The position numbers were made by a program, and so were the translations under genes. A model generated the notes under the pieces. It was not told the origin of the DNA. It worked only from the letters and a program-made list of their open reading frames with translations, and did not search any database. Below are positions 5,284 through 64,000 of a stretch of 64,000 bases of DNA, piece by piece; position 1 is the first letter of the stretch, and each line of letters opens with the position of its first letter. Source of the DNA: Eledone cirrhosa (Eukaryota); NCBI GenBank assembly GCA_964016885.1, contig OZ024743.1, forward strand, positions 30,566,001-30,630,000, given 5' to 3'.

Positions 5284-5479
5284 AGGCCACATACATGTTG
5301 TCCAATAACTACATTTTCTAGCATATTGCATATATATATATATATATATATAAATGAAGTAATTCCGTCGGAAAAGTCCAGGAGAAAAGAGTGCTCTGTG
5401 TAGGTAACAGAGCTTAATAGTTATGTAATAAACAACATAAGGCAATTATTCCATTTACCAGTGGTTTCTTAAAAGCAAA

Positions 5480-6907
5480 TTACAAGGTAAAAATAAGTGT
5501 AGATTTAACCAATTTGATATTGTCGATTTTTACCCATCTATTACTGTTTCCTTATTAACTAATGCCTTAGATTGTGTAAGACCCTTCATTAATATTTCTA
5601 AATTAGAAGAAGACATTATCTGTCATGCTAGAAAAACTTTACTCTTTACTAATGATAATATTTGGGTTAAAAAGTCAAACCCTGAAAACTCTTTTGATGT
5701 TGCAATGGGTTCATATGACAGTGCGGATGTGTGTGACTTAGTAGGATTACTCCTTCTCCACACCCTCAAAGAGAAATTTCCGTCCCATAATATCGGTTTA
5801 TACCGTGATGACGGATTAGCAGTTTCTCATACCACCAACGGCCATAACCTTGATAAATTCCGTAAAGATTTAATCAATTCTTTTGCTAACCTTAACCTTA
5901 AAATCACTATAGATACGAACCTTACTAATGCTAACTTTCTTGATATTAATCTTGATCTACTTACCGCCTCTTTTAAACCCTATCATAAACCTAATGAAAA
6001 TCTTAGGTATATACACAAAGACTCTTGCCATCCCCCTATATATTTTAATAATCTTATTCCTAACATTAGCCGTAGGATTTCTACCTTATCTTCGTCTATA
6101 TACATTTTTAATAAAGCCGCCCCTTATTATAATAAAGCCCTTAAGAACAGCGGTTTTACAGAAAAAAATTCTTATTTACCTACCCCCCCCCCCCCCCCCC
6201 CTAAAACTAACCAGAATAACAGGAAAAGGAAGATTATTTGGTTAACACACCCCTTCTCTCTAACTGTCAAAACTAATGTAGGAAGGAAATTCCTTGAACT
6301 ATTAGACAAACATTTTCCTCCTAATCATAGATATTATAAGATATTTAATAGGAACGTAGTTAAGATCAGCTACTCTTGTTGCCCATCTATGAAGTCCAAA
6401 ATCACCAGTTCAAACCATACGAGAATAAATCCAGGATGCAGTTGCAGGAAGCCGGATGAATGCCCATTGCAGGGTAAATGTAACACCAAATTTGTTGTTT
6501 ATGAGGCTAAGGTAACCCCGGTAATCAACAACCAGCCATCCAGGAGTGAGCGATATGTCGGTATGACCCAGGACAGGTTTAAAACCAGATTTTACTCACA
6601 TGTCGCTTCTTTTAAGCACTCCGATAAACGAACATCAACGGCCCTCGCAAGTAAGGCGTGGGAACTCAAGGATAGTAATATCCCGTACTCTATTGATTGG
6701 TCTATATTAGACCATTCGAGGGAGTACCAAAGAGGCACAAAGAATTGTTCTTTGTGTACCACAGAAAAGTATAGGATTTTGCTTAACTTGAGAGCCACTT
6801 CCGCTTGCCTTAACTCAAAGACTGAGATCTTCAGATGCTGTCCTCATCTGAAATCGCATCTGATCTGCAACTGGATTGACACTCCTATGATAAATCAACC
6901 GCCTTGA
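5480..6907 (+). CDS. PLE reverse transcriptase (partial) + GIY-YIG endonuclease, Naiad-type
   Basis: Frame is open upstream of the tracked ATG (QFDIVDFYPSI); MGSYDSADVCDLVG, GLYRDDGL, CSCRKPDECPLQGKC, VVYEA...YVGMT, CSLC..EK, LNSKTE motifs. Confidence 0.9.
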   Translation, partial: LQGKNKCRFNQFDIVDFYPSITVSLLTNALDCVRPFINISKLEEDIICHARKTLLFTNDNIWVKKSNPENSFDVAMGSYDSADVCDLVGLLLLHTLKEKFPSHNIGLYRDDGLAVSHTTNGHNLDKFRKDLINSFANLNLKITIDTNLTNANFLDINLDLLTASFKPYHKPNENLRYIHKDSCHPPIYFNNLIPNISRRISTLSSSIYIFNKAAPYYNKALKNSGFTEKNSYLPTPPPPPPKTNQNNRKRKIIWLTHPFSLTVKTNVGRKFLELLDKHFPPNHRYYKIFNRNVVKISYSCCPSMKSKITSSNHTRINPGCSCRKPDECPLQGKCNTKFVVYEAKVTPVINNQPSRSERYVGMTQDRFKTRFYSHVASFKHSDKRTSTALASKAWELKDSNIPYSIDWSILDHSREYQRGTKNCSLCTTEKYRILLNLRATSACLNSKTEIFRCCPHLKSHLICNWIDTPMINQPP

Positions 6908-7204
6908 ATTCCTTCTCTGCTCTTTACTTCTGCTAAGGTTTTTTTTTTGCTGATCTACGTTCTGTACTCTTGTATATTTATTTTTTTCTCCCTTACCTCC
7001 CCTTATATTTCACCTTTTCCTATGACCCCCACCCCCCCCCCCCCGCCCATATATTATTTTTGCCTTGCACTTCACATACCCATGTGTATGTGTATGTATA
7101 TTTGTGTGCATATATATAAATGTATGTATATATGTGTGTATATATATGTATATATATATATTTGTGTGTGTATATGTATGTATATGTAGATAGACCAGGT
7201 TTTT

Positions 7205-7263
7205 TTCATTCTGAAGATTGAAGGAAACATTTTTTTGCTTTTAAGAAACCACTGGTGAATGGA
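7205..7263 (+). ncRNA. Type I hammerhead ribozyme motif, probably inactive (GUG cleavage triplet)
   Basis: UUCAUU-CUGAAGA-stem II-GAAA-CCACUGG-UG-AAUGGA. Confidence 0.75.
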
Positions 7264-7299
7264 ATAAATGCCTTATGTTGCTTATTACTTTATTACTTT

Positions 7300-7546
7300 A
7301 CTGCTATATATATGTATATGTAAGATTCATATAAATTATCTAAGACTGAGTTTTACACACACACACATGTATATGTGTATGTGTGTGTATATATATATGT
7401 ATATGTGTGTGTGTGTGTGTGTTTGTATTAGGTTGTGTGTGTTTATGATATATACGTATGTGTATGTGTATAATTGTATAACTATGTATGTATATGTATG
7501 TGTGTATGTATATATATATGTGTGTGTGTGTATGTTTATATTTATG

Positions 7547-7579
<33 letters not shown>

Positions 7580-8244
7580 ATAATTACATATACATATGTG
7601 TCTGTATAATTGTATACGTGTGCGTGTTTGTGCATGTATGTGTATGTATGTGTTTACGTATTTGTATATGTATATTTATGTGCGAGAGTGTGTGTATGTA
7701 TTTACTATTTCGTACGTATGTATACGTGCATTTGTGTGTATTACTTACCACGCGTGTCTGTCCAGTTAGCTGCGTTCTGTATCGCTGTCAAAAATTGTTT
7801 TATATATATATATATATTTTATTTTTCTCATATTTATTTGCGTGTGTGAATATGTAGAGGAGTGCATTTATGTATGTGTATGTATGTACATGTGTATATA
7901 TGTATGATTGTGTGCATGTATGTATGTATGTTTATGTATGTGTGTATGGCTATGTTTGTGTATGTGTATGCTTGTACACATATATATATATATATGTATA
8001 TGTGTGTATGTATATGTAATTATATTTATGTTTCTATGTGTATGTATGTGTGTATATATGTGTGTCTGGTTGTATATATATATGTGTATGTATGGATGTG
8101 TTGATATTTATGTGCGTATGTATATATGTGTTTGTGTGTATTTATATACACATATATGTGTGTATATATGTGTGCGTGTGTGTATGTATGAGTGTATGTA
8201 TGTGTATATATATATGTATATGTATGTATATATATGTATATATG

Positions 8245-8275
<31 letters not shown>

Positions 8276-8320
8276 ATGTATGCTTTTGTGTTTTTGCGTG
8301 TGTGTTTGCATGTGTAGTTT
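7300..8320. repeat. Degenerate (TG)/(TA)/(TATG) microsatellite tract within the PLE 3' region
   Basis: Directly visible. Confidence 0.95.
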
Positions 8321-8418
8321 TATTTTATTTTTCCTTTCCTTCTTCCTTCTCCAGCCTCACTTTCATATAGATTGCATTTTTGTTTTTAAAATCCAAATTC
8401 AATAAACAGACCAGGATT

Positions 8419-8480
8419 TTTTCATTCTGAGGATTGAAAGCAACATCTTTTGCTTTTAAGAAACCACTGGTAAATGGAAT
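8419..8480 (+). ncRNA. Type I hammerhead ribozyme, intact core
   Basis: Stem I UUCAUU/AAUGGA, CUGAGGA 8427-8433, stem II UUGAAAGCAA/UUGCUUUUAA, GAAA, short stem III ACC-ACU-GGU, GUA cleavage site at 8472. Confidence 0.88.
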
Positions 8481-8504
8481 AATTGCCTTATGTTGTTTAT
8501 TACA

Positions 8505-8544
<40 letters not shown>

Positions 8545-8597
8545 GACAAATTTGAACAGGGACAGAACAGAGGCAGTACAATAAATGTTTATTAAAT

Positions 8598-8717
<120 letters not shown>

Positions 8718-12010: not shown

Positions 12011-12353
12011 GGAGTAAATGACAGCGATTATAATTTCGATGGTTTAAAACAATTACTATTTATTTGTCCACAGAATTTCCATCTATCAATAATACAGATG
12101 ACTATTAATTTCTGGTAATACAACTCCCATGGTTATTTTATAATGAGTAACTTAAACTGATCCAATCACATAAATTAGCATAACTTAATCGAATATTGCT
12201 AAGCAGCGTGTATGGTTGTGTACAAAGGATGTATCTCATATGCACACAGGCATACACACATATTCTTTCACATACACAAACACAAACACACTCTTACACA
12301 CACAGACAAATACAGGTCCACCCACAAATTTACAAGCAGACACACACACACTG

Positions 12354-14015: not shown

Positions 14016-14938
14016 CAATATGTTAAAAAGATAACACACCAGAAAGAGAGAGATATTGCGCCATTAATCAAACAGGGAAAAACCACCAGTGTATGGAATA
14101 TATAGCCCATGGAAGGCAGAGTAGACACACAATAATTTAAAGTTTAAATTAAAGTGTAAATAGTTTACGAGGTATGTATTTACACTTTAATTTATACTTT
14201 TAATTATTATATGTCTACTCTGCCTTCCATGGGCTATATATTCCATACACTGGTGGTTTTTCCCTGTTTGATTGATGGCGCACTATCTCTCTCTGGTGTG
14301 TTATCTTTTCAACATATTGTATTATAAAGAGCTCGGGATTCCTTCTCCTTTGAGTAAATTACTGACAGGGAATAACGAGAGTCTATGGCTCCGTTAATTT
14401 ATCGTGATATTTCGCTCCTTATAACAAGCTTTCCTCTCACTCTGTTTGGTTGAGCACACTTCTCTGGATGGTTTGGGCTTCCCTTTCTAGCAGCTCGTTC
14501 CTCAGACGCCACTGGTTACTGCCCTAGGCACGCTCTGAATTCTCTCTCCCACGTGTGACTGGACGGTCGTTTTAGATTCTCTTAGAGTTGTCTGAAATGT
14601 ATAGCCTTACACACGCTGATGCACCATCGGCTAATCATTTCTGTCAACAACTTATTTGGCGAAACAGATCATTTTGGATTTGTACGTGTGTGTTAGATTG
14701 TTATCGAGGTATGTATTTACACTTTAATTTTTAATTTTAATTATTGTGTGTCTACTCTGGCTTTCATGGGCTATAGATTCCATACACTGGTGGTTTTTCC
14801 CCGTTTGATTGATGGCGCACTACCTCTCTCTTTCGTGTGTTATCTTTTTTTTTCAACATATAAAGAGCTCGGGATTCTTTCTCCTTTGAGCACATTACTG
14901 ACAGGGAATAGCGAGAGTATATGGCTTCGTTAATTTAT

Positions 14939-17090: not shown

Positions 17091-17961
17091 TTAAGTATCA
17101 GCCGTACTAAGAGTGAGAAATGAAATTTCATTTTTTCCATTTATCGTTTTCGGTACGCCCGGCCCACTAACTCACTCGATATACAAATTAGGCTGCTCAG
17201 CCGTTAATATGCATAAGGAAAGTATAAACCGTACTTTCAAACGTTCAATCGAGAGACAGGAAGGTATACAGTGCTATATGACAGCGAATAAGCTAGAAAC
17301 TAGTTCATCGTTCTTTTGTGAGTGTTGAACAGAAGGGCACCGATGGTTGCCGAACACTCTACGGCTTAATTCGGGATGTTTGTTTACAAACAAACCAAAC
17401 ATTATAATAAATGTTCGGTAAACACATACGTACATATATATATATATATATATGTGTGTGTGCATGTATGTATGTATATACATACTGCTGTACGTCTGTA
17501 TACATATATGCATGTACGTATACATTCTTATATTTAAGTATCAGCCGTACTAAGAGTGAGAAATGAAATTTCATTTTTTCCATTCATCGTTTTCGGTATG
17601 CCCTGCCGAATAACTTACTCGATATGCAAATTAGGCTCCTCAGCCATTAATATGCATAGGGAAAGTATATACCGTTCTTTCAAACGTTCAATCGACTGAA
17701 ATAAAGGTATACGGTGCTGATGACTGATAATAATCTAGAAACTAGTTCATCGTTCCTTTGTCAGTGTTCAACAAAAGGGCAACGATGGTTGCCGAATATT
17801 GTACGGCTTAATTCGGGCTGTTGGTTTACAAACAAACCGAACATTATAATAAATGTTCGGTAAACCCATACGTACATATATATATATATGTGTGTGCATG
17901 TATGTATATATATACGAACTACTGTACGTCTATATACATATATGTGTGTACGTATACATAC

Positions 17962-18314: not shown

Positions 18315-18605
18315 TATATATAACGAAGGAGGTATGGTAAGGAATCAGATGGACCATAACGCACAAGATTACTCAATACTTAGGGTAGTAGAGTGGGTAA
18401 TAGGAATATGGTAGACCCCGACGGCAGAGATCAAGCCATTTCGGCGGCTATTTCTGGAGTTCAGAAATAGCCGTTGAAACGGCTTGAGCTCTGCCGTCGG
18501 CGTTAAACATTTTCCTATTGCCCACTCTACTACCCTAAGTATTGAGTACTCTGGTGCGTTATGGTCCATCTGGTTCCTTACCACACTTCCTTCGTTATAT
18601 ATATA
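18315..18605. repeat. Foldback/MITE-like hairpin (~140-bp arms) in (TA)n; partial copy at 52150-52198
   Basis: Arms are reverse-complementary around TTTCTGGAGTTCAGAAA. Confidence 0.92.
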
Positions 18606-38850: not shown

Positions 38851-41800
38851 TTACAGATATATACTCAGAGTAGGCCCATTCACTCGGGCCATTCTTGCTT
38901 CTCTCACCCATCTTTCAACAAAATGCTGGGAAGAGAGCACTTCCCTCTCTACTCTGATTTTCCTTTTCAAATGAAATTTGAAAAAGTCAATCAGAGCATC
39001 ACCGAAGAGGTAAGTGCTCGTCTTCAGCCCTTTCAAACGTGTCCACCATACTATCTCTTTCACCATGGCCACCAGGCAGATAAAAACTGCCTGCCCTTCC
39101 CGGCTAAAGGAGGAGGGCGGGGCGATCCTCACGATGGACTCAGATGATAGCCGGATCCGTCCTAAACGCGACAGCAGGTGTTCGACATAAACCCACAAGT
39201 CAGCAATTTTCGGACACTGGACGAGTGCGTGCAGGACGGTTTCGTCGCCCTGCGCGCATCTCGGACATGCCCGGCTGACGGCACCTCCATGCCTGTAGAG
39301 TTTATCCCGAACTGGCAAGGCTCCTCGGTAGCACTGCCAGGCCAGAGATTTCTGGAAGTTGTCCATAGGCCCTGGCCCGAAAGTTCTTCCGAAGAGATTG
39401 GCTAGTTGATTTTCGTCGACGCCTAGAGTTTCCCCAAGTACGTCGTCGCTCTTCCCCTCCACTAATCCTCTATAGAACGCCGAGGTGGAGTTTCCACCGA
39501 TCACATTGCCCGATTGGTCGAGGGCTGTGAGCGCCTGAAGACATTCCAGTCTCCAGGCGCTCCCTCTCGGTCTTCGCTTGACCCAGGACTGCAGCTCCGT
39601 CAAGGAAACGAGCTGGGGAAAAACGCGTCTAGCAAACGGCGACCATACCTGATCACCGTCGAGGAAGAGGTGGAGATGTCGTAGCCTGAGCGCGTGCCTG
39701 CGCATCATCAGCCACGGCATGCCCAGCCCTCCACGTAGCGGGTGTTGCCAACAGATGGACAGCCTGACCATCGGAGCACGTCCCTTCCACAAAAAGCGAA
39801 AGAGCAAACGCTCCAGCGCAGTCAGGCGAGGCTTAGGACAAGGTACGACTGGTTAGGCGGTAGCAGATGACAGACGCGATGTACGCGTTAGCCACCTCCG
39901 CTCGACTTTTCAGGGATAGCTTCCTCTCCGCCCATTTCTGGGTGAGAGAAGCCACCCTGCTCGTCACCTCGTCCCAGTTTTTGTCCGTCTGGAGGTTCGG
40001 ACCGAACCAGACCCCTAGCAATTTAACCGGTCCGTCCATCCAGCGCCCGACGACGCTGTTGGACGGCATGGACCTGCCTCTCCAGGTGCCGAGCTGCAGG
40101 CCCACTGACTTTTCCTGGTTGATCATTGCTCCTGTCACCGCTTCGTATTCTCTTAGTGTAGTGCCGATCGCCTCGATGTGTTTGGCGTTCGACACCACTA
40201 CGGTGACATCGTCCGCATATGCTGATACGGATCTTCCGCATCCTAGTTCGCGCGGGACTCCCCTCAACGTCTCCAGTTTGTGCAGTAATGGCTCGAGAGT
40301 CAATACGTACAAGAGGGACGAGAGGGGACATCCTTGGTGGACCGAGCGCATGATGTTGAACGGTTCCGACAGGTGACCGTTCACTCTCACCACAGAGCAG
40401 ATGTCGCTGTGCATGGCAGCGATCCAGCCTCTGAAGACGGGCCCAAAGCCAGCCGCCCTCAGGACTGCCGTTAGGTAACGATGGTCGACCCTATCGAAAG
40501 CTTTCGACTGATCTAAATTGATCAAGGACCCACTCGTGCCAGGTTCCTTAGCTACCCTCTCTATGATGTATCGCATGAGGTGGAGGTTGTCGTGGATGGA
40601 TCTGTCGGGAATGGCGCATGTCTGCGCCTCTCCCACCAGACCACCAACGACAAGCGCCAACCTCTTTGCTAGCACCTTGGCCAAAATCTAGAACTCTGTG
40701 TTTAGCAGAGTTATGGGCCGGAAATTGTCTATGTTATCCCCCTTGTTCGGATCCTTTCTCAGCAGTGCCACCGCTCCTCGGCTCACAGAACTGGGAATTC
40801 TCCCATTCTGTTGCCAGTTGCAGTAGACGTCCGCCAAGAGGCCTCCGAACAAGTATGGCATCTGTACGTAAAGTTCATAGGGCAGACCATCCAAACCAGG
40901 CGATTTACCCCTTGTGCAGCCAGTCATTGCCTCCCTTACTTCAGCGGCTGTTATCGGCTTTTCGCAACACTTCGCCTCAGTGGCCGAGAGCCGCGGCAGT
41001 CCGTCGTGGTAGACACTAAAGTCCATCCCTCTACCCGGCCCCCCGCTGCCCCCGAACAGCTGAGCGAAGTGTCGCTGAAAAGCTTCACACATTTGCCCGG
41101 GATCGAGTAGCATGCGCCCGTCGTGGTCCACCAAAGACCGGATCGTGGCTCTGTTGCCACGACGCGCCTCCGCCACTCGGGCCCATTGAACGGCTTTCGT
41201 CCCCTCGTGTCTGAGAGCACGCACCCTAGCTCTGACAACGCAGCCTTCGTGCTTTGCATTGAAGAATTGGTCAAGGGCCAATTTCGCCGCAAGCACGTCG
41301 GTCGCAATGCCTTTGCTAAGCCCACGTCTAATTTTCTAACTAGTTCTCCCTCTGCTCTATTTTTCTCTATTGCTAAAGCCTTACTAACCCTAATCGATTC
41401 TATTATAATCGCTCTTTTCAGAGCAAACCACCACTTGTTGTTGACGATGGCCCCCGTCAACGCCCGCTTAACTAGTTCGCTAATCCGGTCTCTGTAGGCC
41501 TTGCGCGCTGGTAAGGACGCGTTTAGCTTCCAGTAGCCGGGTCCTCGTCTATGAAGCCTATCTAAGTCAAGCACACAGGTCACGAATTTGTGGTCCGTGT
41601 AGCTGACTATCTTGAATTGTGGACAGCCTATGCTAGACCTATCTATTTCCCTACAAAATACTCTATCTAGATATGATCTGGATGACCCTATGCGGTTTAT
41701 CCAAGTCCACATTGGCACATTCGGGAAATCCAATCGGTACCTGTCAGACAGTTCAAAACGCCTGAGCAGGTTGGTGAGCCTCTTGCACCCTCCACCCCTA

Positions 41801-42270
41801 TCCGCTAATCCCACACAGTCCCAGCGTGCATCTAAGATCCCGTTCCAGTCGCCTACTAACACTAAAGAGCAGGACGTTCCAAGAAAGGTCTCCAGACGCC
41901 GGAAGAAATCAGGCCGCCCTGCTCCTGTCGGGGCATAGACGGCCACTAGCCTGAAAGCTTGCCCGTCTCCGCTGGTCACGTCCAGCACCACCAGCTTACC
42001 CTCTGTGTCCAGGAAGATGGCCCGTATGGCGAGATCCAAACCTCTCCGAAAAAGCACAGCAACTCCTCCACCCGATCCAGGACGGCTGGGAGATGCGTAC
42101 ACATCGTAGCCGCCGAAGATCGGTTCGAAGGCCCGTGCTTCGGAGATTCTGGTCTCGCTGATGGCCACTACATCTATGTTTAGTGACCTGAGGTCGTTGA
42201 GCAGGTGACCCTGCTTCCATGACGACCCCAAGCCACGCGCTTTTATGCTGCCTATTCTGAGTGAGGTCAT
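38851..42270 (-). pseudogene. LINE ORF2: APE endonuclease, reverse transcriptase, C-terminal zinc finger
   Basis: VAISET, GDWN, YLDR, TDH (APE); KSPGLDG, RPITLLN, LDQSKAFDRVDH, QGCPLS, YADD (RT); CPRC..ETVLHALVQC; frameshifts near 41320 and 39835 and an in-frame TAG at 40688. Confidence 0.95.
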
Positions 42271-42305
42271 GTTTAAAATAGAGTGGAAAAGATGGGAAAG
42301 ACCAC

Positions 42306-43858
42306 TTACCGTACTTTTGGTAGAGGAGGGATGGTTTTTACATTCCTTTTCACTTGATCGTCTGGTGAAGGGACCGTTGAATCGTCCCTTCGGCTGGTCG
42401 TCGGCTCTTCTAAGAGAATGTCTGAATATACTCTTCGATTGATGGTTCCTCCTAGGTCCCTGAAATCACCAACTGCGTTGGGGAATTTCGTTTTAATGTT
42501 TGTGTATTGTTTCTGTGCTATTTTTAGCAGTCTTATGTTAGTTGGCGTTTTGATTGGTGCTATTATGTAGTCCTGTTGTGAAATGTCTGTGAGTTCAATT
42601 ATGTAAGTCATTAGTTTCTTGTTGTGTGTGTTTATTGCCGTGCATTTGTTTTTCTGGGGGTGGGGTGTGGTTCTGCTATTTTCTTGTCGTTGTTGCTGGG
42701 TGTGTGTGTTTTGTTGTTGTTTTTGCGATGTTGGTGCTTGTGGTGGTGATGTTGAAGGTGTTGTTGGCGGTGGGGTTGTCGCCGGTGGTGATGGTGGTGC
42801 TGGTGTGGGTGGTGATGGTGTTGGTGGTGTTGCTGCTGTGGGTCTCTTTGCAGTAGACTTTACCCTTTTCTCATTTCTTTCCTCCCTTTTCAAAGGCGAC
42901 GATGCGCTGCTTCTGCGTTTGTGCCTTCTTGCGACCTTTTGCCATCCCTCTCCCACCTCACACTCCATGTCTGATTCTGTGAGGTCGGGGAGGGGTACCA
43001 GCTCCTTCTTTCACTTGTTGTTGTTGGTGATGTTTGCACTGGAGTCTCTGTTGCAGCTGCATTTGGTATTGCTGTTGTTGTTGTTAATACTTCCACTGCT
43101 GCTGCTGTTTTTGATTTCCGTGGAGTGGGTATGGGTGCCACGGACCTATCGTTCCTGGTTGCCGCTTGTCCTGTTGCTGGTAGCCGTGGAGCCGGATTCG
43201 GAAGGAGGGGGGTTTTCTCCTTTCTCAGGGTCTTCTCGTTGCAGAAGGCCCTGAGGTGAGTCTTCGATCCACAGCGAAAGCATTTCGGGCGTTCGCCCTC
43301 AACACTTATGGGCAGTTGAGTGCCGTTATCGAAGTCTATCACATCCAAGTTTTTCGCAATACCTGCAAATGAGATTGGTTTTTCTCTGCTGTTGTTGTTG
43401 TCGTCAGAGCTGCTGGTACTTTTGTTGTTGCTGCAGGTACTACGACTACTGCCTCCGCCGCTGTTGCTGTGGTTGTTCTTGGTGTTGCTGCTGCTAAAGC
43501 TGTTGTTGTTTATGCTGCTGGTGATGCTGTTGCGGCTGCTACTGTTGTTTTCATTGTCACTGTTGCTGTTGTTATTACGGCTGCTACTGCTATTATTCCT
43601 GACGTCAGACGAATGAACTGGGTTTTCGTATTTCCCGCACACCTGTTTCGTCGCTGTCGTCGTCGTCGTGGAGAAACCTTGCACGCTTTGCACGAGACTT
43701 TTCTTTTCTTTCGTCACTTGCGAAAGAGAAGGGAGGGAGAGAGACACATTTAAAGAAGGGAGGGAGAGAGACAATCTTCTCTCTGCTGTAGTGATGATTG
43801 AGGAAGAAGAAGACGGAATGAGTGGGAGTGACGTATGAAATCTCTTTTTCGTAGCCAT
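42306..43858 (-). pseudogene. LINE ORF1 (gag-like, zinc knuckle), internally deleted and frameshifted
   Basis: CFRCGSKTHLRAFC knuckle; S/N/T/P low-complexity tracts; WQKVARR motif. Confidence 0.8.
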
Positions 43859-45267
43859 GTTGTTTTTTGTTTAAAATGAAATTTTGGGTACAAAACCCCA
43901 ATAACTGGTTATTTAACTCCGAAGGGCCAAATAACGGACAGAAAGACCCCTCTCACGAGGAGGAGGGTGTCTTTATCAACAATTTGGTTCAAGTTTTAAA
44001 CAATTTACAATTGTTTTAACGGTTAAAAATTACTATACCTTACAGAGCCGAGCCTCCGTCAACCATGGCATTCAATAATAATAATAATAAGCAAAAAATG
44101 AAGAGAAGTAGTAGTAGTGGGAGGATGAGGAGGGGGAGGATGAGGAGAAGGAGCAGCAGCAGTAGTAGTAGGTAGAGGAGGGAGGGCAGCAGCAGCAGCA
44201 GTAGTAGTAGTTGTTATAATAATGTCGATGTTGATGAGTCAAAAAAAATTAGAAGCGGTAGACATTGAAGATGGTATTGGTGTTAATTATAATATTGCGC
44301 CTAGAGTAATATTTTAATCGTACCAAGGCTACACTTCTCTTTCGAATAATTGATATCTGAATTCGTCAGAGCTTTGTTCATATCTGTGGCCAATTCTCCT
44401 GATTCAAGTAGCCGTAACAATTGTATGAAGCATGAATTATAAACAATATACTATTCACTATCACTTCAAATTTGATTTCTTGTACTTATGAAGTGGCAAA
44501 TACTGACTGACATTTTACTAATAAGTAGGTTAATGTAGAAGAATATATCTAACATAACGTCTAATGAGGTCTTCGGGTCATTTGCTGTTAAATAAACATT
44601 CATGTGCAATGTATCGATAAACTGCACAGTATATAGATAATTACATTATTATAAGAGATATATATGCTAGTGCGGTTATTGTTTCTTCTCTGTTTAGTTC
44701 TGTTCATACAACCAGAGGTAATCTTGTCTACTGTATTTAGAGAGCATTTACATTATTACCCTATTCATTGACCGCACACACAAATATTATAAATATGAAA
44801 AATTAATCCATAATTTATATATGAAATAGCAACTAAAAACAGTATTTCTATATTTTTAAATTTTATTCATGATCATGGTAAGAGATATGTGAGCGTCAGA
44901 CCTAATCGACGTTGGCTGGCTAACGAAAACTCACAAACTGACACAATACTGAGCGCTCACCGATTTGTGTCTCGTTTACACCAGTGCTTTTGAAACATCT
45001 GGAGCCCAGATTTTCTGAACAATTTTACTATTCATCTCAAGAGGTTTGAAGACAGACATGTGCTAGAACAAACACATCGAATAAGGTTAGAACCTCCCAC
45101 ACAATCCGCCAGCAAGCCCTCACGGTGCCACTAGTTCTGAACGAAAATAAAGTTTCTATATTTATCTGCCCAACTGCCTAATCAAGCCTATCCTACTTAA
45201 CGTTTTACCCCACCCCCCAAAGAGGCGTTTCACCAGCTAGAACCGGATATTTATATATATATATATA

Positions 45268-45545
45268 TAGTTATGTAATAAACAACATAAGATAATTATT
45301 TCATTTACCAGTGGTTTCTTGACAGCAAACACAATTTGCTTTCAGTCATCAAAATGATAAGATGCTGGTGTATTTATTGACAGTCGATTTTAAAAACAAA
45401 AATATAATATATATGAAAGTGAGGTTGGAAAAGCAAGAAGGAAAGGAAAAAGAATAAATGTAAAAGTAGATAAACACACATGCACACACACACACACACG
45501 CACGCACACACGCACACACACATACACTCAGACACGCATATACAT

Positions 45546-45560: not shown

Positions 45561-45595
<35 letters not shown>

Positions 45596-45727
45596 GTGAG
45601 GTTTTTTTTACAAAATGATAAATAACCGAGGTGTCCTACACGAGTGGAAGTATAAAGAAAAAGGGATGAAATCGAAAATGCAACTGAAGTCTTATTTTTT
45701 AAAAAAAATATATATATTTATTTGGTT

Positions 45728-45765
45728 CCTTTACCGGTTTCGCAGTTCTTCTGCTTTTCAAAAGG
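45728..45765 (-). ncRNA. Minimal type I hammerhead, U3-A8 core
   Basis: Inverted copy of 50695-50732. Confidence 0.8.
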
Positions 45766-47328
45766 TGAGTTGAGATGTAGGGTCTGTGGTTTTTCTCACA
45801 TCTGGTTGGTCTCTAAATGTTACTTGTTTTATATGGAAAAAGTGGCTCGAAAACCAGGTTTTTCGAGAAGTAATTTGATTGGTTTGTCAATAATTATAAT
45901 AAATTTCGCGCCAGTTCGCGTTACAATAGTTCCTCAAATAAGAGAGGGGGGGGGGGTTGTCACAGGTTGTTTTTTCATATATGAGTGTTTGAATTTCTTT
46001 TTACTTGAAAAAATGAGGCTCACGAAGGCTTTTTTTTGGTTGGTTATAAATGAAATTTGGCTGTCACGTGAACAAGTTTTCATTACATTTTTGCGCCCTT
46101 ATTTGGAAAACTATTCTGTATTCTTTATAGTGAATGTTATGACAAGGGAGAGATAGTGGTCAAGGGAAAAGGGATTGGGAGAAATGTTCTGGTTCAGTGA
46201 ATATGGCCAGCTGTCAGAGTTCAGGTGTCAGAGTTCAGATTTTCTATTGAGACTGAAGATATGTGTTTATTTGTGTGCTTGTGTGTATATGTGTGTGTGT
46301 GTGTGTGTATGTGTGTATTGGAAGATGATTCTATTAGTAGAGATGGGGGAGGGTGTTATGTGTGTGTGTGCGAGTATGTTAGATAGAGAGAATATATATT
46401 TTGTGTGTGTGTATATATATATGTGTGTAGGAAAGTGGTTCTATTAGTAGAAATGGGGAGGGTGTTGTAGGTGTGGGGGTTGTTATGTGTGTGTATGAGT
46501 GTTATGTGTGTGGTAGTATGGTTAGCATGTTAAGATGAAGAGAATATATATATATATATATATATATTGTGTGTGTGTGTATGTGTGTGTGTAGGAAAGT
46601 GATTCCTTTAGTAGGAATATTTTTGAATGAACATATTTTCCTGACTTTTTCGTGTTTGCTGTTGTATTGCCAGTGCAAACGTATGTTTAAGGTTTATTTA
46701 GTTCGGCTTTTTATTTTCTAAAGTAGAAGGTGTTATGTGTGTGTGTGTATGTCATATTGTGGTGTTTACATAATGTATATTAAACCTTATTTAATGTTGG
46801 TCTATATTTTTGAATAAACATATTTTCCTTATTTATTCGCATTTGTTCTGTTGTATTGTTAGCGCAAAGGTAAAATGGGAAGACTTGGAATTTGGGTGTC
46901 TTATTACTTGCGCAAATGTCTAGATATGCACTTAGTGGTATCTGTCTCGTGGTTGGATCTCGTAATTGTTGGCGATGAACTGTCATTCTGTTTCTGAGTG
47001 TGAGTTTAGTTTGTCCTATATAATCTTCATTGCATCCTTTACATTTAATGGCATAAAATAGATTTTTTGATGAGCAAGTGAAGTGATTTTTTACAGTAAA
47101 ATTTTGTCCTGATTTAAATGTATACGTGTTGCCTTCAATGAGGTGAGTGCAGGTTCCACAATTACAGCGACCACATTTTTTGATACTTGGTTGTGGGTTT
47201 GTGGTAGGTCATTTGGCATTGGTGAGTAATGTTTTCAGTGATTTTGGTTGTCTTTTGCTTTTGATTATTTTGTGTGTTTCAAGGGCTTTTTTCATTCTTG
47301 GGTATACTAATTAGATATAATAATACCA

Positions 47329-49662
47329 ATGAAAAAACATTCCAGAAAAATCATTTTTGTTAGACCAAGGCTACAGGACTCACGACACCCGGTGGCACAA
47401 ACCGATTTTGAAAAACCGAAAATAATTAACATTTCAAATACAAACCTCTCAGCCCAACAAGTAAAAATTATCTCCAAAGGTCTGAAATTCACACCAACAC
47501 CACAATATCCTAACCCCAACGAGATAAATGACGAAATCTCACACTTCTGTAGAAAATTACGTCTCACAGAGGAATTCTTTGACAAGGAGAATAACGACGA
47601 ATCAATTGTACGGAATAAAAGCAGCTACAACCCAACAAAAGGTAGAAACAGAGTTCTGGACAAATTTTGTGACCACATAGCTACCTTCCCATACCATGAA
47701 CTACCGCAACCTAAACCCAAACCCAACACAAGTCGAAGGGAATGGGAGATTGTCCATGAACTAAAAAACAATCCGGACATTGTAATTAAGGAAGCGGACA
47801 AGGGAAGTACTGTTGTCATTATGGAGGCTGAAAAATATAAAAATTATATGTTCTCTCTCTTACAAAATGCTAATTACTATGAAAGAGTAAAAAACTACCA
47901 GCAATCAAAAATAATGACCAAATTAAACACACTGATTTATCGATACCAGGAAGACCTAACTAAAAAGGAACGCGGTTATTTAACAAATTTTGAATACAAA
48001 ACCAGCAACCTTTACGGACTTCCGAAGATCCACAAATGTAAAATAATCAACGATGCCTGTAAACAATCCACCTCAGCCTGCGTGAACACACAATACCCCA
48101 CATACCTTAAATTAAGACCAATTGCAGCGGGCCCACAATGTGAAACACACAGATTGAGCAACTTTATAGACATACTACTGAAACCAATACTGAAACACAT
48201 ACCAAGCCTTGTAAGAGACGATCTGGACCTCTTAAACCACCTCCCCAAACATGTCAACAACGACACTATTATTGTGTCTTTCGATGTAGTGAATCTCTAC
48301 ACAACGATCCCACACCAATACGGACTAGAAGCAATAGGATTCTGGCTAGAGAAATATCCCAATGAGATACCTGACAGAATAGAAAAAAGCTTCATCACCG
48401 GCGGATTAAAATTCATCCTACAGAAGAACTTTTTTGATTTCGATGGCAATACTTACAAGCAAATATCGGGGACTGCGATGGGCACAAAAGCCGCTCCAAC
48501 TTATGCCAACTTAGTCATGGCATACTTAGAAGTCCAGATATATGAACAGTCCAAATCAAAATACGGATTGAACTTCCACAAATATTTATCAGAGAATTGG
48601 AAACGCTACTTGGATGATTGCCTCATTCTTTGGTCCCAGACACTCGACCAACTGAAGGATTTCAAAAACTTAATAAACGGCATCAATAACCACATCCAAT
48701 TCACAATGGAATACAGCCAAGATCAACTCCCATTTCTGGACATCTTAATCACAAAAAAAGACACAAATATCGAAACTGACATACACTACAAACCAACAGA
48801 TTCCAAACAATATCTGCTATTCACCTCCAACCATCCAAAGCACACGAAGACGAACATTCCTTTTAACCTAGCAAGAAGAATTTGCACAATTGTCTCCAAT
48901 TATGAAACGCGAAATAAAAGACTTCAAGAATTAAAGGAAATTCTACTTGAGAGAGAGTACCCACTATTACTAATAATTAATGGAATAGAAAGGGCTAAAG
49001 CAATAGGCATTGATGAATTACGGAAACAGAAACAAATTCAAGGTACGTCCAATATTCTATCATATATCTCAACACACAACCCAAGAAATGCGGAAGCTTA
49101 CAACACTATTCACAATAACATCCCACTACTAAAACAAAACCCAAGAATGAAAAAAGCCCTTGAAACACACAAAATAATCAAAAGCAAAAGACAACCAAAA
49201 TCACTGAAAACATTACTCACCAATGCCAAATGACCTACCACAAACCCACAACCAAGTATCAAAAAATGTGGTCGCTCTAATTGTGGAACCTGCACTCACC
49301 TCATTGAAGGCAACACGTATACATTTAAATCAGGACAAAATTTTACTGTAAAAAATCACTTCACTTGCTCATCAAAAAATCTATTTTATGCCATTAAATG
49401 TAAAGGATGCAATGAAGATTATATAGGACAAACTAAACTCACACTCAGAAACAGAATGACAGTTCATCGCCAACAATTACGAGATCCAACCACGAGACAG
49501 ATACCACTAAGTGCATATCTAGACATTTGCGCAAGTAATAAGACACCCAAATTCCAAGTCTTCCCATTTTACCTTTGCGCTAACAATACAACAGAACAAA
49601 TGCGAATAAATAAGGAAAATATGTTTATTCAAAAATATAGACCAACATTAAATAAGGTTTAA
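47329..49662 (+). CDS. PLE RT + GIY-YIG endonuclease; one in-frame TGA at 49231-49233
   Basis: KGLKF, ADKG, YGLPKIHK, LRPI, SFDVVNLYT, GTAMGT, RYLDD, PFLD; after the stop the same frame gives CGRSNCGTC, LFYAIKC...YIGQT, R..VH, E, LN. Confidence 0.92.
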
Positions 49663-50694
49663 TATACATTATGTAAACACCACAATATGACATACACACA
49701 CACACATAACACCTTCTACTTTAGAAAATAAAAAGCCGAACTAAATAAACCTTAAACATACGTTTGCACTGGCAATACAACAGCAAACACGAAAAAGTCA
49801 GGAAAATATGTTCATTCAAAAATATTCCTACTAAAGGAATCACTTTCCTACACACACACATACACACACACACAATATATATATATATATATATATATTC
49901 TCTTCATCTTAACATGCTAACCATACTACCACACACATAACACTCATACACACACATAACAACCCCCACACCTACAACACCCTCCCCATTTCTACTAATA
50001 GAACCACTTTCCTACACACATATATATATACACACACACAAAATATATATTCTCTCTATCTAACATACTCGCACACACACACATAACACCCATATACACA
50101 CACACACAACTCCCTCCCCCATCTCTACTAATAGAATCATCTTCCAATACACACATACACACACACACATATACACACAAGCACACAAATAAACACATAT
50201 CTTCAGTCTCAATAGAAAATCTGAACTCTGACACCTGAACTCTGACAGCTGGCCATATTCACTGAACCAGAACATTTCTCCCAATCCCTTTTCCCTTGAC
50301 CACTATCTCTCCATTGTCATAACATTCACTATAAAGAATACAGAATAGTTTTCCAAATAAGGGCGCAAAAATGTAATGAAAACTTGTTCACGTGACAGCC
50401 AAATTTCATTTATAACCAACCAAAAAAAAGCCTTCGTGAGCCTCATTTTTTCAAGTAAAAAGAAATTCAAACACTCATATATGAAAAAACAACCTGTGAC
50501 AACCCCCCCCCCCCTCTCTTATTTGAAGAACTATTGTAACGCGAACTGGTGCGAAATTTATTATAATTATTGACAAACCAATCAAATTACTTCTCGAAAA
50601 ACCTGGTTTTCGAGCCACTTTTTCCATATAAAACAAGTAACATTTAGAGACCAACCAGATGTGAGAAAAACCACAGACCCTCCATCTCAACTCA

Positions 50695-50732
50695 CCTTTT
50701 GAAAAGCAGAAGAACTGCGAAACCGGTAAAGG
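50695..50732 (+). ncRNA. Minimal type I hammerhead, U3-A8 core
   Basis: CCUU-UUGAAAA-GCAG(AAGAA)CUGC-GAAA-CCGG-UA-AAGG. Confidence 0.82.
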
Positions 50733-50802
50733 AACCAAATAAATATATATATTTTTTTTAAAAAATAAGACTTCAGTTGCATTTTCGATTTCATCCCTTT
50801 TT

Positions 50803-50859
<57 letters not shown>

Positions 50860-51495: not shown

Positions 51496-52070
<575 letters not shown>

Positions 52071-52102
52071 ATAATAACTTGTGTGTTACACCTCTATTCT
52101 TT

Positions 52103-56664: not shown

Positions 56665-57555
56665 ATACAAAGTGTTAAAACGACCAAATTTTACTTTAGA
56701 ACATTTATTTGCTGACAATTGTTTGTTCGAGAGGGAAGTCTGGAATATTCAGAGCATAGGAAATATCGAAACATGTGACTAAAATCCTAGTCATTCAGAA
56801 CATTTAGGGTACATAATTGTTGTTAGTGTCATAGGCATCATGTGGAGAGTCAGGAGTTAAAAAGATGTTATGCTTGAGAGAACACAATTACAGGCAGCAC
56901 TGGCTGAAAATTTTATTCAGTGGAATTTACATTTAACAAACAAACACCTATTAACTGTATACGACTCAAAATAATCCCATGGTTAATAGCCGTGAGTTAC
57001 AATCAACATATACACATACATACGAACTACAACACAAAAACACTTGAATGAAAATCACATATCCAACTCTATCATTTGCATTACACCTCACATGACACAT
57101 ATCTACATTATCACCACATACCTCTCTAACAAATTGCACACTATCTTAAACATTTCTAACAATTATAACATGCTTTAACACCCCACACAAAATATGTATA
57201 TTTCAACTGCATTATAACTCTTCCCTCATACATGCCTTATTGGTTGTATTGAGCCCTTCATTGTACACCAATTTTCTTTGCTTTTTTGCTGGTACTTTTC
57301 GCTTATACCTCTTACACTTCCAACCAGTGCTGCCCGTAATAGTCTTCTCTCAAGCATAACATATTTGTAATTCCTGACTCTCCACATGATGCCTATGACA
57401 CTAAGAACAATTGTGTACCCTAAATGTTCTGAATAACTAGCATTTTAGTCACATGATCGACATTCCCTATGCTTCGATGATTCCAGATTTCCCTCTGGAA
57501 GAAGCAATTGTCAGCAAATATATGTTCTAAACTAAAATGTGATCCTTTCAACGCT

Positions 57556-57560
<5 letters not shown>
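56665..57560. repeat. Diverged inverted repeat (~245-bp arms, ~410-bp spacer)
   Basis: 56665-56910 vs 57320-57560, e.g. GTGTCATAGGCATCATGTGGAGAGTCAGGA / TCCTGACTCTCCACATGATGCCTATGACAC. Confidence 0.9.
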
Positions 57561-57604
<44 letters not shown>

Positions 57605-57670: not shown

Positions 57671-58360
57671 GAAAGATGAAATCGAAAATGAAACTGGAGT
57701 CTTTTTTTTTTAAATATATATATTTATTTGGTTCCTTTACCGGTTTCGCAGTTCTTATGCCTTTCAAAAGTATAGTTGAGATGGAGGGTCTGTGGATTTT
57801 CTCTCATCTGGTTGGTCTTTGAATGTTAGTTGTTTTATACGGAAAAAAGACCTCGAAATGCCAGGTATTTAGAGAAGTAATTGGTTGGTGAATAAGTATA
57901 ATAAATTTCGCGCCAGTTCGCGTTACAAAGTTCTTCAAATAATGGGGCGGGGGGGGGGGGGGGGGGGGGCTCAGGTTGTTTTTTCATGTATGAGTAAAGT
58001 TTGGTTGGTTGATTCAGTCACGTGAATAAGCACATCAACTTTCGTGCCAGTGTGTGATTGAATTTCTTTTTACTTAAAAAATGTGGCTCATTAAGGCTTT
58101 TTTTTTATACATTTAATTTGATTGGTTATAAATGAAATTATGACTGTCACGTGAACAAGTTCTTTACATTTTACGCCTGTATTTGTGAGTTTATTTTGTA
58201 ACCTTTTAGAGAATTTTTTGCCAAACAAAAGGTAATGGTCAAGAGAAATAGGATGGGGAGAATTGTTCTGGTTCAATGAATATGCCTGGTTCGCTGGGGT
58301 GTCAGAATTCAGACTTTCTATTGAAATAAAGAAAGTAGAAATATGTATGTTTATTTGTGT
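57662..58360 (-). mobile_element. Solo pLTR/3' end of the Neptune-like PLE family with HHR remnant (57734-57772)
   Basis: Diverged homolog of 45651-46280. Confidence 0.9.
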
Positions 58361-61240: not shown

Positions 61241-61288
61241 AACATTTGAAAAGATGGCTTTTGCAGACCCATCGAAACCGGTCATTTT
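61241..61288 (+). ncRNA. Minimal type I hammerhead, U3-A8 core, GUC site, 5' of PLE ORF
   Basis: AACAU-UUGAAAA-GAUGG...CCAUC-GAAA-CCGG-UC-AUUUU. Confidence 0.78.
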
Positions 61289-61458: not shown

Positions 61459-64000
61459 ATGGCACTGGAACAAGACAACACAACTTCAAACTCCAATATA
61501 AATGAGGAAATCCTGAAAATCCTAAAAGAGATAAATGGAAAACTCACCATTCTGACAAAAAAACAGGATATACCCTAAACCACCACACCGACTGACAACC
61601 AAATTTATTTAAACGTTCAAAACGTATGCAACTCCATCGAAAAACTTATGAATACCAACACAGAACAGACGACATTGCTCCATATCAAAAACCAAATGGG
61701 ACACCTCTGGAAAAAACATCTAAAACCAGAAAATTCACTTTCTGGAATGTGATAAACAACCTCAACAAAGCTGGAATTTACCAAAAATGGATTAACTCAA
61801 CACCGATAGTTTTACTACGTAAATTCTAAATAAAGCATATTACAAACGAACCTGAACCGGAAAGAAAACTCCGTGAACAAATGTCACTCAACAGGATAAA
61901 CATGGAAATAGAACTACTAAAATTAAGGGCCACCACCAACGAGCAAGAGTATAAGAATACTGATAAAAATATGGAGGAAGGATGCACTAAAAAGGCCGAG
62001 GGAACAACCCTACAAAATTTAATCAAATCGTGGAAACAGGACTGCGAGAATGCAGAAATTATTTCCCTTAAACGGTGGGAAAAATCCGAAAACTGGTTCC
62101 TCAAATATGAAGAAGACTTTAAAAGGACGCACCAAACAGGTAACCCCTTTATAAAACATTTGAACATAACAAGAACTACAACAGACACATTTACACCACC
62201 AAACCCAACACACACTATCCACACGCACATTCCCCACCAACACAAACCAAATACGGCCAACTATACCAACAGAAACACACCCAACCACCACAACACAGGT
62301 TTCCGTAGAAATGCCCCCTACATAAACCAACGACGAAATAACATAGATCCAACTCACAACACATACACCACATTCCTCAGAAGAAATCCACCCAGACCAC
62401 TTGAAATCACAACAGAACTTACCCACAACCACACCAGACATCACCCTCAATCCAACAAAAGCCAACCCCCCAACCTCAACACTCTGTACCACAGAAATAA
62501 CGCACCCAGACCACATGAGCCAACAACAGAACCCTTGCTCATCAACAACCACAACACATGCCACCCCCAGCATCACATTCACCCTCATGAAACAACAAGC
62601 TACAGACCCACACGCAACAGACCAACAAAATATAATCACACACAAAACTACATTCCTTTTTTAGGGAAAAGCCTGAAATACCAGGATACTCGATGCCCCC
62701 CCCCCCTCCCTCAGGAGAAACCAAAAATAATCAACCTCTCAAAGACACCTCTAACCAACACACAAATCAACATTTTAAGTAAGGGCCTGAAATTTACACC
62801 TACACCACGTAAACCAAACTTCCCCGAAATGAAGGATGACATCATGGAATACTGCCGAAAGCTGCGACTAACGGAATTCTTCCACAACGACACCAACACT
62901 GAAGACGAATCACTGGTTAGAAATAAAAGCAATTTCTGCCCACAAAAGGGAAGAAATAAAGCACTGGACACGTACTGCGAACACATCACCAACTTTCCCT
63001 ATGAAAAAATTACAAATAAACACACGAAATCAAACCTATCTACACACGAATGGGAAGAATTATTCACTCTTAGAAACAACCCTGAGATAACTTTCAAAGA
63101 AGCCGATAAAGGCAGTACTGTTGTAATTATGAATACGGACTACTATAGGATCCTCGCACTTAACATTTTAGAAAACAACACATACTATGAAAAAACAGAA
63201 AACTACAAACACACCAAAACAATGGGGAACCTTTTGACCTTACTGAATAAATACCGCAACAGCTTAACCACAAAAGAGTTTAACTATATAAGCCACTTCA
63301 AATGCAATACAAGCTCTTTTTACGGCTTACCGAAACTCCACAAATGTAAACCCATAAACGATGCATGTGACACCTCAACCAACAATTACATTGAACTAAC
63401 ACCACCAGAAGACCTAAAACTCAGGCCAATTATAGCAGGCCCTACATGTCAAACCCACAGACTTAGCAACTTTCTGGACATCCTACTGAAACCCTTTCTA
63501 CAACATATACAGAGCTACATACGAGATGACCTTGACATGCTGAAACACCTCCCTAAAACAGTAAGTGCAAATATAATTCTTGTCTCCTTTGACGTAATAA
63601 ACCTCTACACAAACATACCCCACAATTATGGAATAACAGCAGTCCAATACTGGCTTAACACACACCCATCAGAAATACCGACACGCATCAACAAAGATTT
63701 TATCACTGACGGACTCCGCTTTATCCTACAAAATAACTACTTCACATTCTATGGTTCAACATACAGACAAGTATCAGGTACGGCAATGGGCACGAAAGTA
63801 GCACCCACATATGCCAACCTAATCATGGGATTCCATGAACAACAAATATACAGTCAGTCCCTTCTCTTATTTGGAGACTCTTTCCACACACACCTCAAAG
63901 CCAATTGGAAATGATATCTAGACGACTGCTTTATCCTATGGCAAGAAGACATGAACTCACTTACTATGTTTAAAAACATGATAAACAACATAGATAATAA
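61459..64000 (+). pseudogene. Neptune-like PLE with intact 5' region: coiled-coil/low-complexity N-terminal ORF followed by RT (runs off window)
   Basis: ATG 61459 (INEEILKILKEINGKL); stops/frameshift before 61881; RT motifs as in the 47-kb copy; TGA at 63912 in WK*YLDD. Confidence 0.92.

Follow-up and report, generated by a model that had tools for sequence, protein, structure and literature searches.

A U3-A8 hammerhead motif in the pseudo-LTRs of a Neptune-like Penelope element of Eledone cirrhosa

Hammerhead motifs and their carrier elements in the window

The window analysed here is a 64,000-nt stretch of the Eledone cirrhosa genome (contig OZ024743.1) with a GC content of 35%. The genome (3.0 Gb) is microsatellite-rich, and the output of repeat finders run on the window was dominated by microsatellites. 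Hammerhead motifs were located by a descriptor scan of both strands. The relevant features are as follows:

45585..47303, minus strand: inverted arm of a Penelope-like insertion, a copy of the 3' ~1.7 kb of the element, found by self-comparison
45728..45765, minus strand: second family A motif, identical to that at 50695, U3 at 45761, in the inverted arm of the same insertion
47310..50807, plus strand: main arm, a 5'-truncated Neptune-like Penelope element without ORF1 start or 5' pseudo-LTR
47311..49233, plus strand: reverse-transcriptase (RT) frame with DKG and YLDD (Pfam RVT_1)
49234..49662, plus strand: CX4CX2C linker and GIY-YIG endonuclease (EN; Pfam PF01541, E 4.5e-7)
50695..50732, plus strand: family A type-I hammerhead motif from the descriptor scan, within the 3' pseudo-LTR
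57734..57771, minus strand: decayed family A motif (U3 at 57767) that carries A9G and a mismatch in stem II
61244..61285, plus strand: motif of family B with U3 at 61246, occupying the 5' pseudo-LTR position; cleavage predicted after 61283
61830..63914, plus strand: broken ORF1/ORF2 frame of a Penelope-like element of family B; a T-TTT-TTA heptamer lies near 62657

The motif at 50695 reads, 5' to 3', UUGAAAA, a GCAG/CUGC stem II with an AAGAA loop, GAAA, CCGG and UA, and is closed by a stem I of CCUU (50695-98) and AAGG (50729-32). U3 is located at 50699 and A8 at 50704, and cleavage is predicted after A17 at 50728. The core boxes (U3 U4 G5 A6 A7 A8 A9; G12 A13 A14 A15.1; U16.1 A17) are those of a type-I hammerhead: YUGANRA with Watson-Crick pairing of positions 3 and 8, then GAAA and UH. 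In the family B motif, stem II is GAUGG/CCAUC, the site is GUC and stem I comprises only two contiguous pairs; the ORF1 ATG follows ~175 nt downstream, at 61459. The motif at 57734 sits in an older fragment (~87% identity across 57675-57942). The scan recovered motifs at all four positions named in the original prediction, which had been made from the sequence alone, and the motifs were as described there, including a stem II that differs between families yet pairs through compensated changes. Their Penelope-like pseudo-LTR context had no part in that interpretation. Motifs 45728 and 50695 lie in two arms of one inverted insertion and are therefore not independent events.

Beyond the predicted cut, the main arm terminates after 79 nt and the inverted arm after 147 nt, both in (TA)n. 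The RVT_1 match (E 1e-6, 28.9 bits) falls just under the cut-off of 29.6 bits. The RT frame closes with a TGA at 49231; selenocysteine insertion or read-through at this codon was rejected, as a sense codon occupies the position in all 20 intact copies fetched. Together with the 5' truncation and an altered ORF1/ORF2 junction, this stop between RT and EN marks the copy in the window as dead, and the motifs at 50695 and 45728, coming from a dead truncated insertion, are probably inert. Elsewhere in the genome, RT identity was 97-100% in the 128 scored matches of 34,036 candidates, and on this sequence evidence family A is a young Penelope-like family. Among 20 fetched copies picked for an intact 775-codon RT-EN frame, 19 had the motif on the same strand, ~1.05 kb beyond the frame. 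Of 23 loci picked for long 5' repeats, 17 contained a pair of motifs in the same orientation at a distance of 4.6-5.0 kb, as did three loci of the sister family B (L093, L094 and L100). The motif is thus found in both pseudo-LTRs of a Penelope-like element (PLE).

The order of domains (RT with DKG, then a C-terminal GIY-YIG) and the layout, with a partial tandem, an inverted 5'-truncated arm and a tail at one end, are those of EN+ PLEs. The linker CGRSNCGTC (CX2-5CxxC) and the targeting of microsatellites match the Neptune type described by Craig et al. (2021, PMC8557442), whose elements share these domain and layout features and also carry a hammerhead near the 3' end. We call the carrier Neptune-like on the basis of linker, target and layout features. 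It differs from the Neptune elements described there in its tail of 68 nt (vs 30-40) and in a separate ORF1 of 400 codons. In intact family A copies, this ORF1 and ORF2 overlap (-1 frame), and the overlap contains a T-TTT-TTA heptamer that was in correct phase in 46 of 50 rows of family A and three of four rows of family B (e.g. L117:3055-3061; window ~62657-62663). Judged from sequence, the heptamer is likely a candidate for programmed -1 frameshifting; only a weak hairpin is predicted downstream of it. A frameshifted ORF1 in some PLE types is noted in the legend of Fig. 1 of PMC8557442; our literature search on frameshift or slippery sites in PLEs gave no match, and an earlier description is possible. 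Seven copies (L143, L150, L172, L181, L190, L207 and L213) cease to resemble the reference at about -580 to -593, and several of them share upstream sequence, which suggests a subfamily with a different 3' region.

Abundance and conservation of the U3-A8 core

The family A pattern matched exactly at 12,279 places in the 3.0-Gb genome, compared with 0 for the reversed control. A wider U3-A8 pattern, which covers families B and C, gave 3,420 matches (46 in the control), and another gave 1,265 (2 in the control), where family E accounted for 87 of the first 100 matches listed. For the C3-G8 pattern, 9,764 matches (191 in the control) were obtained, mostly from 466-bp tandem arrays among the first 100 matches listed. 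All U3-A8 patterns together thus amount to ~17,000 matches vs ~9,800 for C3-G8, with pattern strictness not identical between the two. The expectation of a high-copy motif, for which a genome-wide U3/A8 search had been proposed, is borne out by these counts. With the same reservation about strictness, searches based on CUGANGA only would miss more than half of the hammerhead motifs in this genome. Under-annotation was likewise confirmed, as no hammerhead appeared among the 150 matches listed of 166 in an Rfam scan of the window. As a C3-G8 motif at 8427 was overlooked too, the failure is not specific to U3-A8. As for other matches in the scan, long inverted-repeat (fold-back) insertions at window 14016-14326, 18323-18595, 51608-52073 and 56665-57561 gave rise to spurious miRNA matches.

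Stem II was paired in every family (GCAG/CUGC, GAUGG/CCAUC, GAUG/CAUC, GCU/AGC, GCUA/UAGC and GCUU/AAGC); helix II contains G10.1-C11.1, has 4 bp in family A and 5 bp in family B, and is compensated in six families. The variable positions between families are N7, loop II, H17 (A, C or U) and the compensated stem II pairs. Stem I has 4 bp in families A, F and C2 (3 bp in a common A subfamily) and 0-2 contiguous pairs in B, C and G, i.e. two each in B and C and none in the single family G copy. Most family C loci have no linked ORF, and one linked locus is present in each of C2 and F. Core invariance in families C, E, F and G follows in part from the search patterns; only the comparison of A and B is anchored on protein homology.

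Between families A and B, identity is 57.5% for ORF2 and 35% for ORF1, and their ~1.1-kb 3' regions can be aligned only in microsatellites and short AT-rich words. Nevertheless, both core boxes are exact between them (10/10 and 9/9) and occupy the same position, flanking stems II that differ in sequence and still pair. The 10/10 box is the longest non-microsatellite exact match between A and B except for an 11-nt A/T run, and none of 20,000 shuffles of the 1,338-nt family B 3' region matched the descriptor. From this comparison, the core appears to have been retained by selection between families A and B. These observations, together with the fit of the motif to a published type of PLE hammerhead, render it extremely improbable that we are dealing with a chance resemblance amplified passively with the repeat, which the neutral decay inside family A (see below) would otherwise agree with.

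Another explanation is that the motif has been kept as a structured cis-acting signal (for RT or ORF1 binding, packaging, as a promoter, or as a translation element just ahead of ORF1), with little or no cleavage in vivo. The weak stem I in families B, C and G and the misfolding of the family B motif in prediction (see below) favour such a role, and so does the absence of insertion ends at the cut. Moreover, non-cleavage roles were left open by the authors of PMC4209133, and Naiad PLEs spread without canonical hammerheads according to PMC8557442. On the other hand, the part common to A and B coincides exactly with the catalytic core, differences occur only at positions on which hammerhead chemistry places no constraint, and the 3-8 pair is complementary in all families. 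We therefore regard a cis-signal without appreciable cleavage as a serious but rather unlikely alternative to a hammerhead that cuts.

At the level of copies within family A, the variants counted were 51 at N7, 51 at A8 and 56 U3C, and G8 accompanied C3 in none of the 56 C3 copies. We thus observed neither covariation of positions 3 and 8 within the family nor an excess of changes at N7 over those at A8 or U3C, so copy-level variation gives no sign of selection. Such neutral decay is the pattern expected of dead insertions, and any selection would act on source lineages only. The claim that the ribozyme class is functional is not upheld in this respect, since genomic copies of family A decay neutrally and the family B motif is not predicted to fold as a hammerhead. 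Contigs from four runs over 50400-50800 contained no variant of at least 3% in 50696-50727; ~2 would be expected by our estimate, and the difference is not significant. At C1:348863669-348911674 (L251-L254), the family A motif occurs as a U3C variant repeated six times with ~9.6-kb spacing, apparently due to segmental tandem amplification.

Dimer folding, insertion ends and the RNA template

The family A motif has the palindromic, unstable helix III of the minimal PLE hammerheads, with ACCGGU and a 2-nt loop III. In a monomer, helix III is predicted not to close, as this would need a loop of 2 nt, while stem II is predicted with a probability of 0.90. Predicted energies are -21.1 kcal/mol for the hammerhead dimer, -22.5 kcal/mol for the best dimer fold and -15.0 kcal/mol for two monomers, placing the hammerhead dimer within 1.4 kcal/mol of the best fold; the ACCGGU duplex has a predicted energy of -8.3 kcal/mol. 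For family B, the prediction gave no hammerhead fold: stem II had a probability of 0.00 in a 58-nt fragment, and the dimer (-7.9 kcal/mol) lost to an alternative fold (-24.1 kcal/mol). The proposal that U3-A8 hammerheads need dimerisation via ACCGGU is hence energetically plausible for family A, but it does not extend to U3-A8 motifs in general, as helix III of family E is able to form within a single copy (see below).

Full-length elements contain two same-strand copies of the motif ~4.7 kb apart, which would permit a dimer. They represent a small minority, as only ~140 copies span the junction of pseudo-LTR and body, vs 12,279 motifs. Some 99% of copies, that at 50695 included, have no same-strand dimer partner, and ~1% are in full-length tandems. 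In 30 sampled loci, a partner on the opposite strand was found in 18, no partner in 12, and a same-strand partner within 1.5 kb in none.

We then consider where insertions end relative to the predicted cut. Among 74 rows with 3' ends, 36 ended at about +147, 30 at +70 to +79, four ran into the body and four ended elsewhere. The two fixed 3' ends (66 of 74 rows) are UA-rich and nearly all run into (TA)n. As for 5' ends, determined in 95 rows of the 140 junction-spanning copies, 59 extended through the whole 5' motif (some for more than 1.9 kb), 31 started at +8 to +130 and five at -14 to -17. None of the 74 3' ends was situated at the predicted cut and none of the 95 5' ends was within 7 nt of it, ruling out the cut site as an insertion boundary. 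The five 5' ends located 14-17 nt upstream of the cut (L114, L146, L186, L193 and L204) coincide with the 3' strand of stem II and possibly reflect stops of RT at this hairpin, a post hoc reading.

The two repeats of one element differed by 1.2%, as opposed to 2.2% between elements (16 elements; 0/20,000 permutations; L115 was excluded because its 5' repeat was shorter than the compared window), and a sample-private variant was present at both ends in eight of the 16. From the lack of ends at the cut, the extension through the 5' motif and the similarity of repeats, it can be inferred that the RNA serving as template comprises more than one unit and includes an intact motif. The absence of a cut footprint is compatible with a circle and equally with no cleavage. 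Similarly, homogenised repeats are explained by a circle, and also by template jumping on uncut RNA. The latter enters another scenario, in which the ribozyme cuts in order to produce a linear 5' end or to trim read-through RNA, as HDV-like ribozymes do in R2, and tandems arise via template jumps instead of circles. The position of the cut, 168 nt ahead of the ORF1 ATG in family A, would suit this scenario. However, no accumulation of 5' ends is seen at the cut and the 3' copies are always uncut in the template, for which reason we consider it improbable.

Taken together, the motif is in our opinion probably a pseudo-LTR hammerhead with a U3-A8 core, carried by a young Neptune-like PLE, that cleaves weakly and only as a dimer, releasing a ~4.7-kb RNA for circularisation and reverse transcription. 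According to this model, two motif copies in a full-length tandem transcript would pair through ACCGGU into a dimer, which would cleave weakly after A17 and free the unit-length (~4.7 kb) RNA. This RNA might then be religated into a circle and reverse-transcribed, primed on nicked (TA)n targets at the UA-rich sites that lie 79 or 147 nt beyond the cut. A broader picture can be offered only tentatively, namely that U3-A8 is the majority core in this genome and is fixed both in a very young, Neptune-like, -1-frameshifting element of two ORFs that replicates via a ribozyme-cut, religated 4.7-kb circle and in a monomer-competent 316-bp retrozyme. If this were true, the pair of element and retrozyme would make the long-open role of Penelope hammerheads directly testable. 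Whether PLE hammerheads cut and circularise RNA was called unclear in PMC8557442, and a young family with intact copies is good material for this question.

Relation to known systems and other hammerheads of the genome

The C3-G8 pair is established (PMC3884650). Natural U3-A8 covariation was reported in several hammerheads and stated to be active in vitro (Perreault et al. 2011, PMC3088659). U3-A8 is also covariant in the hammerheads of Cercyon PLEs of Schistosoma mansoni, with ~1,300 hits (Cervera & de la Pena 2014, PMC4209133), and a PLE-linked UUGAAAAA box is listed in the supplement of that paper. The original prediction of a rare or new class does not hold, as U3-A8 was published for Penelope elements in 2014 and as a natural variant in 2011; the motif is a further example of the U3-A8 hammerheads of PLEs. 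The 3-8 swap is the same as that of Perreault et al., and in Eledone it is fixed in whole retroelement families. In PMC4209133, dimeric and trimeric constructs of one minimal hammerhead from a Schistosoma PLE cleaved weakly and monomeric ones did not (the core type is not stated in the account of these constructs), and a circle model was put forward. The dimer dependence of such hammerheads is summarised in a review (PMC6765202).

The likeness to Cercyon as described in PMC4209133 is considerable, comprising type-I motifs in pseudo-LTRs, U3-A8, G10.1-C11.1, palindromic 15.2-16.2, copies that are mostly solo or on opposite strands, and the dimer model. In contrast to the strict minimal hammerhead consensus given there, which has an extra nucleotide between A9 and G10.1 and no loop III, the Eledone motif lacks this nucleotide and possesses a palindromic 2-nt loop III (ACCGGU rather than ACGU). 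Instead of the strict consensus, it matches the variants with a 'small palindromic helix III' from rotifer and shrimp in the same paper. Further differences from Cercyon are a shorter stem II (3-5 bp), a Neptune-like carrier, a copy number ~10x higher, and the excess of U3-A8 over C3-G8 under the patterns used.

U3-A8 was also found in family E (L123-L128, L130-L134 and L271-L274), a 316-bp tandem retrozyme-like repeat inserted in (TA)n, with a bulged stem I of 10 bp. Its helix III has 4 bp and is compensated (CAUG/CAUG in eight of 22 rows, CAAG/CUUG in 11 of 22). As this helix can close within one copy, U3-A8 is not tied to a dimer-only architecture. We rejected the view of CAAG as a non-palindromic loop challenging the dimer idea, since family E has its own 4-bp helix III. 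The hammerhead is not the predicted minimum-energy fold of family E (-9.6 vs -16.3 kcal/mol). The 466-bp tandem arrays (L061-L090) contain a canonical CUGAUGA hammerhead with C3-G8, an ACUAGU palindrome, a 7-bp stem I and a covariant stem II (GUUGU/ACAAC vs GAUGU/ACAUC), and a decayed relative of them is present at window 17091-17875. Both arrays, with one type-I hammerhead per unit, are similar to non-LTR retrozymes (PMC7229834; bioRxiv 10.64898/2026.07.22.740005), whereas the motif at 50695 sits in a protein-coding PLE. A search of the main text of PMC7229834 (Cervera & de la Pena 2020) for 'U3-A8' gave no match. Sequence comparison connected neither of the two retrozyme units with element A, element B or the element at 5441-8600.

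The last of these is represented in the window by a PLE-like frame different from those above (5441-6907), followed downstream by a hammerhead at 8420-8479 (plus strand) with a canonical core (CUGAGGA), a 2-bp helix III and a 7-bp stem I. A relative of this motif near 45300 (45270-45441, minus strand) reads UUGAUGA. Finally, ORF translations point to a degraded non-LTR (LINE-like) element at window 38851-43870 (minus strand), with a long first frame and APE/RT-like frames.
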